From: a virus
Lineage: Duplodnaviria > Caudoviricetes
Direction: 5' to 3' (one strand)
DNA: 64,000 nucleotides
Virus record (IMG/VR): IMGVR_UViG_3300033120_000461
Span: 1-64,000 of that record
The notes under the pieces are model-generated. The model was given only the letters and a program-made list of their open reading frames with translations, was not told the DNA's origin and ran no database searches. Below are positions 4,100-28,300 of this stretch, in pieces. The stretch's first letter is position 1, and every line of letters starts with the position of its first letter. The position numbers and the translations under genes were made by a program.

Positions 4100-5854
4100 T
4101 CAGACCTTACCCTCCTCAGAGCGATTCTGGGCTTCAATGCTTTCCCATCTGGCGCAGAGGAACTGGTAGTATTCAAAGGGGGAAAGTGCATTTTCGTACA
4201 AGCCAATAGCCCATGCGTCGTTCACCTCCACAAGGGCAGTCTCACCCGTGGACAGGACGCCTACGTCAAGGGCAAATGGGTGGCCCAACTCTTCAAACAG
4301 AAGACGCGCCATCTCTTCCACAATAGCCATGTCGGGCTTAGGTGCGTCATCCTCACCATCCTCATCATAGCGACCTGATTTCAGGTTTCCAGGACCTGAA
4401 ACGTAGTATCGGTACTCAGAGACAAAATTGACTTTTGAGGAAACCCACAACATGGTCTGAGGCGGAAGGGAGTCAAAGACCTCTCTTTCCTTCGAATCAG
4501 ACTGCAACAGAAATCCTGTGAAGGTCTTGAGTTTGTCTGCTGGCTTCACGAACACGTCCTCAGACATGTTCAGATTCTCCTTGGTTGTCTGTTGGACATC
4601 TCGAAGCAAGAACCTTTGCAGCACATCAGGATAGCAATTCCAGACTGGTAGTTTCAGACCGAGTCTCGCCATGACTGCTTGAACAAACTCGACAGTCCCC
4701 ACAGGAACTCCATCAAGTTTGGACGTGTCTAGGGTAGGCACATCTTCAAGTTTGCATTGGTAACGGACGATGGTGTCATGGAGCATAGATGCATGATGCA
4801 CCTTGCTGACCTCGTAGGATCTCCCTTCCTCCATGCTTTGGAGGAGGACACTTCTAAGCTTTGGGCTCGGCACTAGTCCTGAGGCAAACTTGAGTGCTCC
4901 AAGTGCGCCCTTCACAGAGTGGGAGAACCACCAGACTTCCTTTCCAATAATCAGCTTGATGGGCCCCTTGAGCTGACCTATCTGTACCTCAACCGAAGGT
5001 TCACTGGATCCTTTCGGAGGGGTGTGGATCGTCCAATTGACTCGATTGTCTGGCTCCTTGAAGTACGGACACCAGTCATCGAAGACCACTCCCAGACCCA
5101 AATGCTTGGCGGGTTCAAAATGCTTGGGGATGTTCTCTTTGATAGCCAGAAAGATGGGGTCTGAGGCCTTGTATGCTGCCCATTCTTCATCTCTCTTCCG
5201 AGATGCAGCGGCACTCCTCTCCCGTCTTTCTTTCTCAGCAGGTTCCATCCATCTTTCCAGAGTCACCAAAGACATCCCCTCTCGTCTGTACTTGACCCAC
5301 GCGACTACCTTGTCTTCTTCATCCGACTCTTCCCCAGCCTCATCGTAGGAGTAGCCCATTTCGAAACAGGTGATTGTTCCGTCTGGGCTGATGTCAGGTT
5401 CCTTTGAGCCTGACATCAAAGGTTCCTCTTCCTCGTTGGCTGGTTTGATCTCCGGCCACCCTTCCATAGGGTTCGAGAAGTCAAAGAATCGATTCTCATA
5501 GGGGCAAGCCCAATGACAACCATCTACGACCAAGCACTGAAGTGTTGGACTCCACTTTGAACTTGCCCAACAAAATCCATCAGGTGACATGATGTCGACC
5601 CTCTTTCCAGTGTCTAGTTCAATGACTGTCTGCCCCATGTAGTGAGAACCACACACCAGGTAGTCATGCCCGTTGGGGTGCCCTTCTACAAAAGCGTAGG
5701 GGAAACTCCCATAGTTTCGGTTCACAGTCTCAATGACTTCACCATCAGAGCGACTCACAACTCCTGTTGCATAGTCCCAACACCCAGGCCGAGTCGCTTG
5801 CTTTGAGACCTCCAATTGGTAGTGGCCACTTGGACTCATGATTGTCTTTGTCAT
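4100..5854 (-). CDS. Fusion of an unknown N-terminal domain and a C-terminal ATP-grasp domain (R2K/DUF4343-like)
   Basis: C-terminal FVKPADKLKTFTG, SEYRYYV and ALDVGVLSTGETALVEVNDAWAIGLY. Start moved to ATG 5854 because the track's first 26 codons coincide with the tRNA. Confidence 0.75.
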   Translation of the reverse strand: MTKTIMSPSGHYQLEVSKQATRPGCWDYATGVVSRSDGEVIETVNRNYGSFPYAFVEGHPNGHDYLVCGSHYMGQTVIELDTGKRVDIMSPDGFCWASSKWSPTLQCLVVDGCHWACPYENRFFDFSNPMEGWPEIKPANEEEEPLMSGSKEPDISPDGTITCFEMGYSYDEAGEESDEEDKVVAWVKYRREGMSLVTLERWMEPAEKERRERSAAASRKRDEEWAAYKASDPIFLAIKENIPKHFEPAKHLGLGVVFDDWCPYFKEPDNRVNWTIHTPPKGSSEPSVEVQIGQLKGPIKLIIGKEVWWFSHSVKGALGALKFASGLVPSPKLRSVLLQSMEEGRSYEVSKVHHASMLHDTIVRYQCKLEDVPTLDTSKLDGVPVGTVEFVQAVMARLGLKLPVWNCYPDVLQRFLLRDVQQTTKENLNMSEDVFVKPADKLKTFTGFLLQSDSKEREVFDSLPPQTMLWVSSKVNFVSEYRYYVSGPGNLKSGRYDEDGEDDAPKPDMAIVEEMARLLFEELGHPFALDVGVLSTGETALVEVNDAWAIGLYENALSPFEYYQFLCARWESIEAQNRSEEGKV

Positions 5855-5855
5855 A

Positions 5856-5930
5856 TGGTCTTGGTGGGGTTCGAACCCACGGCTGTACTGGTTTAGAATC
5901 AGTTCCCTTGGACCACTCGGGCACAAGACC
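5856..5930 (-). tRNA. tRNA with CUA anticodon (amber suppressor)
   Basis: GGTCTTG TG CCC GAGTGGTCCAA GGG A ACTGA TTCTAAA CCAGT ACAGCC GTGGG TTCGAAC CCCAC CAAGACC A: 7-bp acceptor stem, D-arm with GG, anticodon loop TT-CTA-AA, perfect 5-bp T stem, A73, CCA not encoded. Confidence 0.9.
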
Positions 5931-5959
5931 ATGTCGGCTTCAAGGTGCCGAACAACCTG

Positions 5960-6271
5960 TCAACTGAAAGCTAGGGGGAGATCTTGAACTAACTTACGCC
6001 CTGAAGGGGCAATTGCGATTGCCGCAAGTTCATTACCAAGGTCAGGTTCTGTGAAAAGGGAAACTGGCACGCCAGCTTCCCTCGTACGTTCTGCAAGAGA
6101 GGTGAGAGAGGTTAGATCATCCGTCTCCAAGAGTACAAGGGTGTTGGATGTCCGATACCACTCATCGTCAATCGTGCCAAACCCCGCTCCGAACTCACGA
6201 AGAGCATGACACAACATAGCAGCCCGAAGACCTTCCTTGAGGTCCTTGCGGGAAACAAGGAAGAGCTTCAT
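5960..6271 (-). CDS. pth2: PTH2-family peptidyl-tRNA hydrolase-like protein
   Basis: KLFLVSRKDL...GLRAAMLCHA...W...NTLVLL...FTEPDLGNELAAIAIAP matches the PTH2/PTRHD1 layout. Confidence 0.75.
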   Translation of the reverse strand: MKLFLVSRKDLKEGLRAAMLCHALREFGAGFGTIDDEWYRTSNTLVLLETDDLTSLTSLAERTREAGVPVSLFTEPDLGNELAAIAIAPSGRKLVQDLPLAFS

Positions 6272-6702
6272 GCAGCCTCCTGGACAAATGGCTTTCGTCC
6301 CTGACGAACCTTTGCCGCTGCCTCAGCAAGATGCTTTGCAAACTCCTTGCTTTCTTCCTCGGAGGGTTTCACTGCCATCCAGAGAGCTACTTCATCCTTC
6401 AAACCTGGGTTCCCAGCTGCGGCTGCGATGGCCGATGCTGAGACACTTGGCTTCTTGGTATTGCGCTCGACTTCCCAGTATCTTGCTCCACGCAGGAAGG
6501 CGTAAGCCAGTGCGAGAGTTCGGATCTGGTTCTTGTGGAACCTACTCTGGTACCAAAAATTGGTCAGAGTCTTCAGACGAGATGGCTCGCTGATAGGTGT
6601 GGATTTCTTGTAGGCCACACGTTCCTTGGTGGTCTCTTGCTTGTTGTGGACGGTCTCAGCAAGCGTTGTCTTCAGCACTACGATCTGGTTGTTCTTTTCC
6701 AT
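6268..6702 (-). CDS. Conserved phage hypothetical protein (LAYAFLRGxxY motif)
   Basis: RTLALAYAFLRGARYWEVE motif, AGGAG SD upstream, ATGA overlap with the pth2-like gene. Confidence 0.8.
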   Translation of the reverse strand: MEKNNQIVVLKTTLAETVHNKQETTKERVAYKKSTPISEPSRLKTLTNFWYQSRFHKNQIRTLALAYAFLRGARYWEVERNTKKPSVSASAIAAAAGNPGLKDEVALWMAVKPSEEESKEFAKHLAEAAAKVRQGRKPFVQEAA

Positions 6703-6815
6703 GGGGTATCTCCTAAAGGTTTGGTTGGTTCACGACGAAATGTTGTCATGGCCAAGTCCTTGGGAGGTCCACGGGGGAGATTTACCTACGTGTGGTGCGA
6801 GATCATTCCCAACAT
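6678..6815 (-). promoter_or_regulatory. Putative leader peptide ORF with in-frame amber (codon 10) and RGPP motif
   Basis: ATG TTG GGA ATG ATC TCG CAC CAC ACG TAG GTA AAT CTC CCC CGT GGA CCT CCC AAG... = MLGMISHHT*VNLPRGPPK...RS*, overlapping the SD and start of the 6268-6702 gene. Confidence 0.55.
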
Positions 6816-6909
6816 CTAAACTGGATTTCGAGTTTGTCTAGGGTCACTGTGGAAAAAAAGCGTAACATGAGACGTTAGACCCTCGGACCCCAACCAAACC
6901 CAGAAAGAA

Positions 6910-7260
6910 ATGGCAACTGTGTCTGAACCTACAATGGACCAATGGGAGACCCTATCCTACGAGGATCGTGTCACCTACCTCCGAAAACACGGCCAGTCTG
7001 GGGGTTTGGACCTGACAATGGACCAATGGAAGACCTCTATAGGTCAGATTCTGGGGGTCAACTCAGAATACAAGGACCGTGTCATCCACATCAGGAAACA
7101 GGGTCAGTCTGGAGGACTGGAACTGATCCGCGTTGAGAATAGGAATCCAGTCCTCATATGGACTGCTCAAGGAGAACTCATTCGTACTCACGGTGAGTTC
7201 AGGTTCGTCAAGGATCATATCCTGAGGCAGATGTCTGAAAACCCAACTTGGGTCCCCTGA
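6910..7260 (+). CDS. Hypothetical protein with an internal duplication
   Basis: Two MDQW...DRV..RK.GQSGGL.L units. Confidence 0.7.
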   Translation: MATVSEPTMDQWETLSYEDRVTYLRKHGQSGGLDLTMDQWKTSIGQILGVNSEYKDRVIHIRKQGQSGGLELIRVENRNPVLIWTAQGELIRTHGEFRFVKDHILRQMSENPTWVP

Positions 7261-7263
7261 AGT

Positions 7264-7578
7264 ATGAGCAAGCTAGGACTCAGCAAGTCAGACTCCGAAC
7301 TACTGGAAGAGATTCGGGGAGTACCACGACCAAGAACTCAGGGTTTTGGGTACCGAAATCCAAATCAACCCATGAACCCCAGTTACGTAGTAGATCCTGC
7401 TGTGGGCGCTCGTTGGGTGTCCAATAGGATCTACCCAAAGCCTTGCGTGATTGAAATCCTAGAGGTAAGCCCTCAAGGAACAACCATTACCGCAAAAACA
7501 TGTGGGTCTAACCGGACACGGAAGATCCACATCATCACCCTTCGTAGCCACTACAAGCCAGAACCCTTGGAGACCTGA
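7264..7578 (+). CDS. Hypothetical protein
   Basis: 104-aa ORF in a tightly packed plus-strand run. Confidence 0.65.
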   Translation: MSKLGLSKSDSELLEEIRGVPRPRTQGFGYRNPNQPMNPSYVVDPAVGARWVSNRIYPKPCVIEILEVSPQGTTITAKTCGSNRTRKIHIITLRSHYKPEPLET

Positions 7579-8075: not shown

Positions 8076-9143
8076 ATGAAACCCGTACTTCTCACACGAG
8101 ATCAATTTCGCTCAGGTGTTTTCGAACGAGACTCCAATAGGTGTGTCGTGCGCAATGCACTTGGTGTTCGCTGCGAGCAAGAAGCAGCGGACGCTCACCA
8201 CATTCTTGAACGCCGTCTTTGGTCTGATGGTGGCTACTACCTGGACAATGGTGCTTCGGTATGTCCAGACCATCACATTGAGGCTGAGCAGACCTTGATA
8301 GGATGCACAGACCTGCGTGAGTGGGCTGGGATCACAAACCTAGTCATCCCCGACCACCTTTACAGAGATCAGGGCTACGACAAATGGGGGAACCCCCTTC
8401 TTCCGAATGGCTCTCGGATGTGTGGTGAGCTTTTCTACGACGAATCTGTGCAGAAGATCCTGGCCCCTGTGCTGCACCTGTTCACGGTACGAGTAAAGTA
8501 TCCGAGGACGTACCATCTCCCTTGGTCTCCTGGGGTCACCAAAGACGATCGTGTCATCGCTGCCAAGGACCTGGATGCTCTTTTGAATATGGAGCTAGTC
8601 GTGACGGCCAAGATGGACGGGGAAAACACAACCATGTACCGAGATGGTCTTCATGCCCGCTCCTTGGACTATGAGCCTCATGGGTCTCGGGACTGGGTTC
8701 GAGCGCTCCATGCTCGGGTGGCTCATGAAATCCCAGAACGTTGGCGTATTTGTGGGGAGAACCTTTTCGCAAAGCACTCGATCCACTACTCCAATCTGGA
8801 GTCTCAATTCTTGGTCTTCTCCATCTGGGATGGTCTTCGCTGCCTGTCTTGGGACGACACTGTCGAGTATGCAGGAATGCTGAACCTTCCAGTTGTACCT
8901 GCCCTCTCAAGAGGCTCGTACCTCAGGACCCAACTTCAGGCCTTGGGCCCAACTCTGGTGAAGGATGGGTACCAGGGAGACCCCTGCGAAGGCTTTGTTG
9001 TTCGTCGAGCAGATGAGTTCCAGTATGGGGATTTCAGACGTTCAGTGGCCAAGTACGTCCGAGCCAACCACGTACAGACACACGGACACTGGATGCGCAA
9101 TCAAATCACCCCCAACACAACCCGCCGTGATGACAAGCACTGA
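8076..9143 (+). CDS. HNH domain fused to an ATP-dependent RNA ligase
   Basis: N-terminal VFERDSNRC...DAHHI...LDNGASVCPDHH (HNH); C-terminal KYPRTYHLPWS, VTAKMDGENTT (motif I), ICGENL, CEGFVVR, VAKYVR. Confidence 0.85.
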   Translation: MKPVLLTRDQFRSGVFERDSNRCVVRNALGVRCEQEAADAHHILERRLWSDGGYYLDNGASVCPDHHIEAEQTLIGCTDLREWAGITNLVIPDHLYRDQGYDKWGNPLLPNGSRMCGELFYDESVQKILAPVLHLFTVRVKYPRTYHLPWSPGVTKDDRVIAAKDLDALLNMELVVTAKMDGENTTMYRDGLHARSLDYEPHGSRDWVRALHARVAHEIPERWRICGENLFAKHSIHYSNLESQFLVFSIWDGLRCLSWDDTVEYAGMLNLPVVPALSRGSYLRTQLQALGPTLVKDGYQGDPCEGFVVRRADEFQYGDFRRSVAKYVRANHVQTHGHWMRNQITPNTTRRDDKH

Positions 9144-25333: not shown

Positions 25334-25354
25334 TAGATATTACACCCAGAAACC

Positions 25355-28300
25355 CTACCTCACGTCCTCGTCATACGTGAATTCCACGATGCCCAAAGAC
25401 AGGTATTCCACGCCTGTTGGCACGATGTCATGGTCTCCAGTTTCCACACCCACAGTGTAGGTTGCCCAGTATTTGTGGTTTGAAGGAGCATCACCAACAG
25501 CCAGACTTAGGAGCACTCGGTTCTGAGTGATGAGAACTCTCCGAGCCAGGATGTCTTGACCTGTTATGTACCCTTGGGAGATCAGAGTGTTGTCGTCGCT
25601 GTACCCTGGAATGACAAGACCTTCATTTCCGATGATGTAGGACCGGCCAGATGCCTCTACCAACCTTTCAGGAAGAGAGGTCTGAAGTGTAGTGGGCTCG
25701 TCATCTTGGAAGACACCTCTGAAGTCCCCCTTAGGCCCACCACCCGTTGTTGTGGCAGCGGTCAGAGTACCTGTGAGCAACCATGTCTGGACTGTCGAGT
25801 TAGACCAAAGTGGGATGCGGAATGAATCCCCAATTTGAGTTGAATTGAGTTCATCCTTGGCAACTTGTGACCCAATCGCCCGCACCATTTTCACAAGTGG
25901 GGTTGCCACATAGGAGACTCCTGTGGTGGCGTCAATGACACGAATCACGTCACTTCTACGAAGGGCAATACCCTGCCTCAAATTGGAGACTAGAAGACCA
26001 AGATTGGCCCGAATCGAGTTGTCAACAACACTCTTCACGAACCCCTTCTTTAGGATGACTGTGGCTTCAATGTCTACAGGTACTGAGATAGAACTCTTGC
26101 CAAGTACGTCTGCTGTCGCATGCTTTTTTTCATCCAAAGCCTGCTGAAGAGCACTCGTGACTAGATTCACCCGATATGTGACGACGAAGTTCTCATCGTA
26201 TCGGTAACTGATGAGAACGCTCTGGCCATCAGCAATCGTGCTGGTAGAAGTCCTCTTGATTCCAAGGGGGTTTGTCTGGTCCCCCTCAATGATTGTGTAG
26301 TCTGGGGTCGTAGTTGAGAATGGGCCTGCATAGGTCACAGTTCCTGCAACATTGGTCACGACCACAGTGAGAGAGTCTGCCCCTAAGCGAAGAACGTACT
26401 CCACATATTCACCTACGATTACATGCTCTTCGTTGGTGACTGTGAGGATGTCTCCTGTGGGGATAGAGAGTGCGGGGTCTGCACTTCCAACAATCTGAAT
26501 GTAGTCCCCTGCTTTGGTGGACCGCCCAAGAGAAAGAGGGCTGTTGGGGTGAACCAGGCTGTAGATGGAATTGTTGAGGTCTCCAGTGGACTCACCAACT
26601 ACAGACACCACAGATTCTACAGGCTGTCGAGTCAGGGTGAACTTTTCACCTGTTCTGTATCTGTAGTCTCCTAGGATGACGTCTGTGAGAGTTGGGACAA
26701 CCCATGGCTGAGACACATCCAAGTCAAGTTGGATTGTGTTGTAGTTGAGGATCTGCACTCCGCTCAAGTTGAATGAAATCCCAGTTGTCGCGTTACGCAA
26801 CCCAAGGCCAATGCTGGGGTAGTCCAGCATCTCTGCAATGGGGTTCTCTGGGGACAAATCTGAATCCAAAGCTTGGAAACGATAGGCCTCTGGGTTTCCC
26901 ACAACCACGAACTGGACCTCTCTCTTTCGCACAAACGTGAAAGCAAAGGTGTCCGTTACAGTGGCGAACCGTGTGCCTTGCTCCCAGACATCAACCTTTC
27001 CACCAATGTGAGTCTTGGTGATGGGGTCGAAGTCACGTTGCATGAGAGGGTTCCCGGCCTCTACAACCTGGGCTTGGATGACTCCGGGTACCCCAGCTGC
27101 AATCTGGTAGCACCCTTGGGTCGTGCCTGTGTCCACTGCGGAGAGTGCTCCCCGAGCTTCCGCTGCAAGTTGCGCATTGGTCTGTGAGTTCGTTCCTCCA
27201 AAGAAGGGGGAATCATTGACAACAGCGAGACCAAAAGGAGCCCCTGAGGAGATCTGACGAGAGCCCACATTCCCAGCCACACCTGGGGAAACAGCCTGAG
27301 CTGGGACCGTGATCGAATACTGACCCGTCGAAGGATTGAAGTAGCTTGCGAGCCTAGCTACATTGATTTCCGCAGCCCTTGTGGTTCGGAATGTTGCCCC
27401 TCCCCCAGTGATCAAAGTCCCAAGCAGGATTTGACGGGTTGCATTGGGGGCAGTGGATGTGAAGAATCGAACCTCTCCAATAGACCTGAATCCATTGGTA
27501 CGGACCACACCCACATTGGCCGCGAGCTTGTCGAAGGCACCATCAATCACAGTCTGGACAAGAGCTGTGTTGGCCATGTACAGAGCCTTCGCAAGAGCGA
27601 TCTTGTAGGCACTGCCAGTCACTGGAATTGAGTTCCCAGTGTTGTTGGGGTCGTCGATCTCCAAAAGGGTGTCAAAGGACGATGCTCGGTAGATGAAGTC
27701 GAGCAGGAACCGAACTCTCTCAGCCTCCTGGGAGAAAGGATCCAGGAACGTGTCTCGAATCACGGCTCCAGGCTGGACTGCAATATCCTGGTCTTTTCGG
27801 TAGATTGAAGAGATTGCGTTCTGCAAAATCTGTTGGCGACTCACTGAAGGCAGCACAGAGGTGCCAACTCGAACGTTGATTGGGTTTGCTACAACCTCAG
27901 GGGAGAAAGAGGACTCGAATTCAACCTGAGCCAGAGAATCGAAATACACAGCAGTGACTGTGTAGTACAAAGGTTCAGTTGCTGGGAGAACTGCAAAAGA
28001 GCCCACAGATATCGTGCTAGGCACACTTGAAAGATTGAACTTCCGGTTGTGCTTGAACTCAAAGTAGCTGACGTGTTCGATTGAGGAAATCGCCACGTCA
28101 ATCTGGATTTCTGACACCGTGTCAGGGATGCTCACCGTGGAATCAACATCGGTCTCCAAAGTGACTTGATTGAAGTCCTCTTGGGAGATCTGAGCCCGAA
28201 CAAACAAGGGGTCCGCGCCCGCTGTGTTGTTCTTGCTGACTAGATTGTAGAGAGGTCGAACATTCTCGACGAAGACTGGAACCGTCACAGGTTGTGCGTT

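Follow-up and report, generated by a model that had tools for sequence, protein, structure and literature searches.

The locus considered here raises the question of why a phage should place, directly upstream of one of its genes, a minute open reading frame that is interrupted after six codons by an amber codon and then runs into a motif of the kind that arrests bacterial ribosomes. The window analysed, a stretch of 64,000 nucleotides, is part of a 73,282-base IMG/VR record that CheckV rates as 14% complete, and which is thus a fragment of a very large phage. Within it, a 207-nt intergenic gap separates a divergent plus-strand gene (start 6910) from a minus-strand gene for a 144-residue protein (6702-6268), and this gap holds the small open reading frame (sORF), also on the minus strand. 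The first part of the sORF encodes M-I-S-H-H-T (6806-6789) and is followed by the 'gate' codon UAG (6788-6786), which is read in the sequence, by four spacer codons, V-N-L-P (6785-6774), and by the arrest motif R-G-P-P (6773-6762); the amber codon and the motif lie where a sequence-only reading of the locus had placed them. The distance from the motif to the initiation codon of the 144-residue protein gene (ATG 6702, same strand) is 59 nt, and includes inner hairpins (6761-6716) that lack a U-tract and are not an intrinsic terminator, as well as the Shine-Dalgarno (SD) sequence of the gene, AGGAGA (6714-6709), which is predicted by folding to be sequestered. Beyond the gate the frame ends, as that reading had also held, at a second amber codon (6680-6678) that overlaps the next gene, 24 nt inside it, and this stop is not conserved. 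The whole element occupies approximately 140 nt. Only six residues precede the gate, without any hydrophobic segment, N-terminal signal or transmembrane segment, and their histidine-rich end recurs in one clade of relatives.

The start of the sORF was assigned from the sequences that precede it. A -35-like hexamer, TAGACA (6840-6835), and a -10-like hexamer, TAGATG (6818-6813), are separated by 16 nt, with the latter ending 6 nt before ATG 6806. The same arrangement, with T[TA]GAC at the same distance, a spacer of 16-17 nt and a -10-like hexamer ending 6-10 nt (mostly 6-7 nt) before the sORF start, is found in 17 related leaders, each from a separate lineage. Because a sigma-70 consensus scan of positions 6500-7000 called no promoter, TAGACA being too weak a match, the assignment is made from this conservation only. 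The conserved spacing in the relatives implies that ATG 6806, rather than the in-frame ATG upstream (6815-6813), is the likely start, and the sORF would therefore be leaderless or nearly so; the earlier suggestion of a weak promoter serving a leaderless ATG 6806 has accordingly gained in strength. A longer motif, CCCTWGAC, was also considered as a repeated phage promoter and was rejected, with 4 copies present against 5.6 expected.

On the evidence of sequence comparison and RNA folding described below, the leader is considered likely to be a translational switch that reports decoding of its UAG codon through arrest at R-G-P-P and opening of the downstream SD sequence. In the proposed mechanism, the operon mRNA would begin almost directly with the tiny sORF. 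With release factor RF1 alone acting at the gate, ribosomes would terminate at UAG 6788-6786 and the Gly-Pro-Pro codons would stay paired to the SD sequence and AUG of the next gene, so that the SD sequence would be closed and both the 144-residue protein and a translationally coupled PTH2-like protein would be off. A tRNA with a CUA anticodon, encoded at the end of the same operon, would instead decode the UAG, whereupon the ribosome would advance four codons and arrest on R-G-P-P, the P site being occupied by the first proline codon and the A site by the second. In this position it would cover the anti-SD sequence, the SD sequence and AUG would open, and other ribosomes would translate the 144-residue and PTH2-like proteins. 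Since decoding of UAG competes with RF1, such a switch would report the balance between tRNA and release factor. We infer from this arrangement that arrest takes place in so short a context, that its effect is in the ON direction and that the phage tRNA is the agent of read-through.

The choice of motif is in agreement with what is known of arrest peptides. RGPP has been described by Fujiwara et al. as the most robust bacterial arrest core and as refractory to EF-P (PMC12992588), the arrested ribosome having the third codon of the motif in its P site and the fourth in its A site (PMC12992588). The sequence-only reading had invoked the dependence of Pro-Pro on EF-P, and this part of it is doubtful here because RGPP arrest is reported to be refractory to that factor. 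The same study makes no mention of phage, stop codons or suppressors (PMC12992588). Counted against the proposal is the shortness of the nascent chain, which would be 14 residues long at the stall. Furthermore, several RAPP/RGPP peptides of Streptomyces arrested poorly on E. coli ribosomes (PMC12992588), which implies that arrest depends on the host.

A single genome proves nothing in this respect, because the pattern 'TAG, 2-8 codons, R-[GA]-P-P' is expected by chance about once on the two strands of 73 kb (hand arithmetic) and is found once; the significance of the element derives from its conservation in 18 lineages. Homologues of the 144-residue protein that are 92% identical occur on three contigs of the same synteny and one that is 41% identical on a 196-kb contig, and an exhaustive profile-free search with this protein returned 31 cluster representatives. 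The DNA of ten representatives was inspected, a peptide-pattern scan added 17 loci and a DNA-pattern scan one AT-rich phage; collapsing near-identical contigs left 18 leader lineages. These lineages are related, and the p-values given below consequently overstate their independence. Searches of GenBank phages with the DNA of positions 5800-7300, and by tblastn with the 144-residue protein and a central family member, gave no match, so that these searches yielded no cultured phage carrying the module, and a search of viral contigs for related loci with the 144-residue protein as single query likewise returned nothing.

All 18 lineages contain an sORF, a UAG or UAGA gate, a spacer of 2-8 codons and the arrest motif, which is RGPP in 17 of them and RPPP in the remaining one. 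The element stands directly upstream of the homologue, with one such motif per locus, and the design persists down to approximately 30% identity of the downstream protein. Conservation of the spacing between amber codon and motif had been named earlier as one of the checks, and in all 18 lineages the spacer consists of whole codons or, where the gate is TAGA, of 3n+1 nt. The sequence after RGPP is not conserved and the end of the read-through frame varies among the relatives; in the closest of these (L002-L004) a 5-nt deletion just after the motif shifts the frame. Such freedom would be expected of a sequence that ribosomes, halted at the motif, do not normally translate. The anatomy of the leader and its conservation, as well as the pairing and the matching of frame to tRNA presented below, are what the comparison and the computed folds show.

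In one AT-rich phage (L007:1469-2134, minus strand) the gated leader precedes a gene for a 171-residue protein without detectable similarity to the 144-residue one, followed by genes for an HNH endonuclease and a peptide deformylase, and a tRNA gene is located directly upstream of the leader. From this example, the leader seems to be portable between gene sets.

The candidate agent of read-through is an amber-suppressor tRNA with anticodon CUA in a 7-nt loop (5930-5856, minus strand), identified by ARAGORN and by Rfam (RF00005, 56.8 bits; gathering score 29), and the sole tRNA in the 73-kb record. An A-C mismatch closes the anticodon stem at its base, which is counted against the switch. A CUA tRNA lies no more than 2.5 kb from the leader in 15 of the 18 lineages; two of the others are represented by contigs that are too short, and the last (L022) has an odd tRNA only. 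Also informative is the relationship between the tRNAs and the frame of the motif. Relative to the sORF and its UAG, 14 lineages have RGPP in frame 0, four (L012, L014, L021 and L022) have it in the +1 frame and none in the +2 frame. In all four +1 leaders the gate reads TAGA and the spacer measures 3n+1 nt, and the codons that precede UAGA (CAC, UCG, UGG and UUG) allow no slippery re-pairing in the P site. Where the tRNA of a +1 lineage is readable, as it is in three cases, its anticodon loop is 8 nt long and includes UCUA, whereas the nine lineages with only a 7-nt-loop CUA tRNA, the window included, are all in frame 0. By hand calculation, a random distribution would place all three +1 cases within the five lineages with 8-nt loops only with a probability of 10/364, or about 0.03. 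The match between leader frame and loop type is thus suggestive, though not proof, since the lineages share ancestry and the +1 proteins form a loose group on the tree. Counted against it are two exceptions, L008 and L034, which have only an 8-nt-loop tRNA and yet a frame-0 leader; L015 has tRNAs of both kinds.

Several features of the 8-nt loops can be recorded alongside. The loops AUUCUAAC and CCUCUAGC, present in L008:4443-4516, L034:3241-3314 and L015:4432-4503, go with a frame-0 leader, while +1 leaders go with CUUCUAAU or CCUCUAAU, and the last loop position differs between the two groups, being C in the former and U in the latter. Near the +1/UAGA leader of L022, the tRNA at 4629-4703 shows the odd loop CGCCUAA with G in place of U33; it is called Arg-CCU by ARAGORN and scores 37.7 bits with Rfam, and opening the last pair of the stem places CUA in a 9-nt loop.

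An alternative reading of the same element is that it senses RF1 rather than the phage tRNA, with read-through occurring when host RF1 is scarce or inhibited, perhaps by the phage itself, and the CUA tRNA a mere co-resident. Read-through of UAG is a competition between tRNA and RF1, so that the element would report their ratio whichever of the two varies, and the prfB frameshift site senses RF2 in a like spirit. The tight linkage of a CUA tRNA to the leader at nearly every locus argues against this explanation, as does the distribution of the +1/UAGA leaders, which occur only where there is an 8-nt loop, a restriction that RF1 sensing by itself does not predict. Sensing of RF1 alone is accordingly judged unlikely, and the phage tRNA is retained as the probable input of the switch.

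The manner in which arrest could be relayed to the next gene emerges from the predicted folds. In the minimum free energy (MFE) fold of every leader, the Gly-Pro-Pro codons pair with the GGAG of the downstream SD sequence; in the window, GGAG 6713-6710 is bound by 6766-6763, and the stretch 6704-6699, with the AUG in it, by 6774-6769. Across the 18 lineages, pairing of the SD core with the stall-codon region has a median probability of 1.00. The median probability that the core is unpaired is 0.00 in the free leader and again 0.00 when a ribosome footprint is centred on the gate, where the largest change is 0.012, and it reaches 0.41 once the footprint is moved to the stall (Wilcoxon, 2.7e-5). 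For comparison, the median unpaired probability of GGAG in 68 control genes of the same phages is 0.25 (Mann-Whitney, 2e-4). In the window itself the unpaired probability of GGAG is 0.01 in the free leader, 0.01 with the ribosome at UAG and 0.19 with the ribosome at RGPP, and the corresponding values for the AUG are 0.00, 0.01 and 0.34. The opening modelled for the window is therefore modest, and this is counted against the proposal; an earlier occupancy model with a 6-nt SD window gave no opening there, whereas the 4-nt core and the AUG do open.

The stall/SD duplexes are also specific to their own lineage, with cognate duplexes at -21.2 kcal/mol compared with -15.2 kcal/mol for swapped ones (permutation p 5e-5), a test made conservative by the stall segment of L016, which was mislocated by a regular expression. 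The greater strength of the cognate duplexes implies that the helix co-evolves beyond the CCUCC/GGAG core. In these folds the conserved anti-SD sequence thus consists of the Gly-Pro-Pro codons (GGN-CCU-CC), whose partners are GGAG and, in the window, the AUG as well. A different segment, ATCTCC (6781-6776), had previously been proposed for this role, and while it is indeed complementary to GGAGAT (6713-6708), it is not kept in the relatives, reads ATCTTC in the closest of them and is unused in the MFE fold; it was rejected as the anti-SD sequence.

The same elements might be taken to act with reversed polarity, the stalled ribosome blocking expression, or through transcription, with termination at UAG exposing the RNA to Rho and the control extending to transcription of the entire operon, tRNA gene included. 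The stretch between RGPP and the SD sequence is C-rich in several lineages, and the tRNA gene lies downstream in the same unit with no terminator between, which would suit control of this kind. A ribosome stalled approximately 60 nt upstream, however, leaves the SD sequence uncovered, and the lineage-specific pairing is directed at the SD sequence and AUG, which is the signature of translational control. Furthermore, a search for a terminator-like hairpin in the leader found none, and the leader, which thus has no intrinsic terminator, would offer Rho an untranslated stretch of only about 60 nt. Both variants are considered highly unlikely compared with translational activation by the arrested ribosome.

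Whether the sORF is translated at all can be addressed from the pattern of substitutions in the motif. Were the element composed of RNA only, with the CCUCC anti-SD sequence in a structured 5' UTR serving as a thermosensor or protein site, the sORF, UAG and RGPP would be untranslated. CCUCC can sequester an SD sequence without translation, and there is a trace of selection at the nucleotide level: the first proline codon of the motif is CCU in nine of the ten lineages compared, although CCU accounts for only 0.16-0.33 of the proline codons in those phages, and this over-use implies a second, nucleotide-level constraint on CCUCC. Against this reading, eight codon quartets encode RGPP, in which the Arg, Gly and second Pro codons each end in any of three or four bases, while the residues are kept. 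In addition, the spacer keeps its frame over lengths of 2-8 codons, with none of the 18 lineages in the +2 frame (about 1 in 1,500 by chance, by hand arithmetic), and the start codon is held at a fixed distance from the conserved promoter. An untranslated element is therefore likewise considered highly unlikely. As for coincidence, one motif in 73 kb is close to expectation, but the recurrence of the design in 18 lineages to approximately 30% protein identity, and in L007 ahead of a different gene, leaves practically no probability that a TAG and codons for RGPP came together between two genes by chance. The proposal that only ribosomes reading through the gate reach RGPP, and that their stalling frees the next SD sequence, is thus supported by frame conservation, synonymous change, the link to the CUA tRNA and the folds.

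The genes placed under this control are co-directional, in the order 144-residue protein gene, PTH2-like gene, CUA tRNA and R2K ATP-grasp fusion, and no terminator was found between the leader and the tRNA gene, which belong to the same transcription unit. The 144-residue protein (6702-6268, minus strand) represents a family of at least 31 representatives without a Pfam or PHROG family. Its AF2 model (pLDDT 92) consists of a long helical hairpin and a small helical domain, for which a Foldseek search returned nothing in the PDB at E <= 0.001 and the Atlas no usable match; matches obtained with VIA-align (among them DksA2, the SerRS arm and designed bundles) are generic helical hairpins, from which no function is drawn. 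Among the family members P0001-P0032, 22 of 32 end in Ala-Ala and a further five in Ala-Ala-Glu, usually as R-x-A-A. This C-terminus resembles the end of the ssrA tag and, as a lead only, the protein may be short-lived, perhaps as a ClpXP substrate.

The second regulated gene (6271-5960, minus strand) encodes a PTH2-like protein of 103 residues, the ATG of which overlaps the stop codon of the preceding gene (ATGA). The match to PF01981 spans residues 1-96 of 103 (E 1.1e-5) and exceeds the cut-off by a narrow margin, with 26 bits against 23. Of the 18 lineages, 15 have a PTH2-like homologue. The R2K ATP-grasp fusion begins with an ATG (5854) that stands one base past the discriminator base of the tRNA (5856), and no SD sequence fits outside the tRNA. 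On the other side of the leader, the divergent 116-residue gene (6910-7260, plus strand) encodes a tandem repeat of two units of approximately 35 residues, each with an M-D-Q-W start and a Q-S-G-G end, without a family match, and the divergent operon also contains an RNA ligase (8076-9143, plus strand; PF09414/phrog_24030). The RNA ligase, together with the tRNA/PTH2 module beside it, makes up a cluster of tRNA-related functions.

Two further phages provide a wider setting for the PTH2-like gene. In Mycobacterium phage Myrna (33036-33392), gp84 is PTH2-like and lies amid a cluster of Ser and Leu tRNA genes, a setting which implies that PTH2 accompanies phage tRNA clusters beyond the suppressor module as well; a gated leader of the RGPP type is absent from this locus. 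In a 462-kb AT-rich uncultured phage (LR756500.1:108514-114816), the PTH2-like gene apparently starts ATG-AAG-TAG, with the TAG in frame, and a CUA tRNA is found 800 nt downstream of it. No RGPP leader was found at this locus, and TAG is probably a sense codon in LR756500.1, which is a different situation.

Reassignment of TAG throughout the genome (code 15-like) was considered for the present phage and was rejected, with no sign of it in 73 kb, or approximately 14% of the genome. Long open reading frames are not longer when TAG is read as sense, and the stops of greedily chosen open reading frames are strongly biased, comprising 60 TGA, 8 TAG and 6 TAA. Avoidance of TAG fits a phage with an amber suppressor, but TAA is avoided too. 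A candidate read-through fusion of 1138-residue and 136-residue open reading frames (25334-25357, minus strand) was also rejected, since the TAG is followed in the same frame by TAA four codons on and read-through adds only G-F-W-V.

Compared with known regulatory systems, the leader is closest in construction to the arrest peptides with RAPP/RGPP cores (ApdA, ApdP, ApcA, CruR and the Streptomyces uORFs, with RAGP in SecM), in which the same core likewise ends a small upstream open reading frame and ribosome arrest presumably unfolds an RNA structure in which the SD sequence of the next gene is concealed (PMC12992588, PMC10987492). The known members of this type sense export, membrane insertion or metals by means of an N-terminal signal or transmembrane segment, with force on the nascent chain releasing the arrest. 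The phage leader, in contrast, has six codons before its gate and no targeting signal, takes stop-codon decoding as its input, is viral and is carried on an apparently leaderless mRNA. It is thus a leader that works like those of the arrest peptides, but one outside the families that monitor Sec and YidC. The trpL, hisL, pheL and T-box leaders similarly read the supply of one tRNA and set downstream expression accordingly; these stall when charged tRNA is scarce and act via transcription terminators, whereas the phage leader would reach its arrest only with the special tRNA present and would act on the SD sequence.

The prfB frameshift is another instance in which an early in-frame stop codon gauges termination, by CUU-U slippage in the P site assisted by an internal SD sequence, with RF2 itself as the product. 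The UAGA relatives of the phage leader also change frame at the stop, but without a slippery codon, probably through a dedicated tRNA and with an arrest peptide as the output. In the mammalian AMD1 tail, ribosomes that have read through a stop codon likewise meet an arrest peptide (PMC13025110). The arrest there takes place 384 nt downstream at a second stop codon, read-through is by a near-cognate host tRNA and the resulting queue represses the same open reading frame (PMC13025110), while in the phage leader the arrest would come only 2-8 codons later and is expected to activate the next gene. Engineered decoding of UAGA with UCUA tRNAs, in laboratory constructs for genetic-code expansion, employs the same pair as the +1 relatives (PMC4764823, PMC9122531); the window differs from these quadruplet systems in that its own tRNA has a 7-nt loop and its gate is a triplet. 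Full-text literature searches on arrest leaders gated by a stop codon, on phage sensors of suppressor tRNAs and on UAGA decoding in nature brought up recoding surveys, engineered quadruplets and AMD1 only, and no phage in which the UAGA/UCUA pair occurs naturally.

Many phages with the standard genetic code carry suppressor tRNAs, the purpose of which is, to our knowledge, known to nobody. The element described here gives such an 'orphan' suppressor tRNA a defined target in cis and a testable read-out, and it brings to the arrest-peptide family a new input, the decoding of a stop codon, while the +1/UAGA relatives point to natural four-base decoding. If the full interpretation given below is true, the element would be the first regulatory target found in nature for the orphan suppressor tRNAs of phages, and its relatives would supply the first natural pair of a UAGA codon and the tRNA that decodes it. 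As a part of about 140 nt, the leader could also serve in synthetic biology to report amber or quadruplet suppression. The full interpretation, in which large phages carry a self-contained sensor of the decoding state that co-evolves with their own suppressor tRNA, and in which the leader tests whether the phage's own tRNA reads the UAG triplet or, in some lineages, the UAGA four-base codon, and thereupon turns on a module with a tRNA-directed hydrolase, is one for which the odds appear evenly balanced at present; the link between suppression and a PTH2-like enzyme hints at control of the tRNA and peptidyl-tRNA pool during infection.
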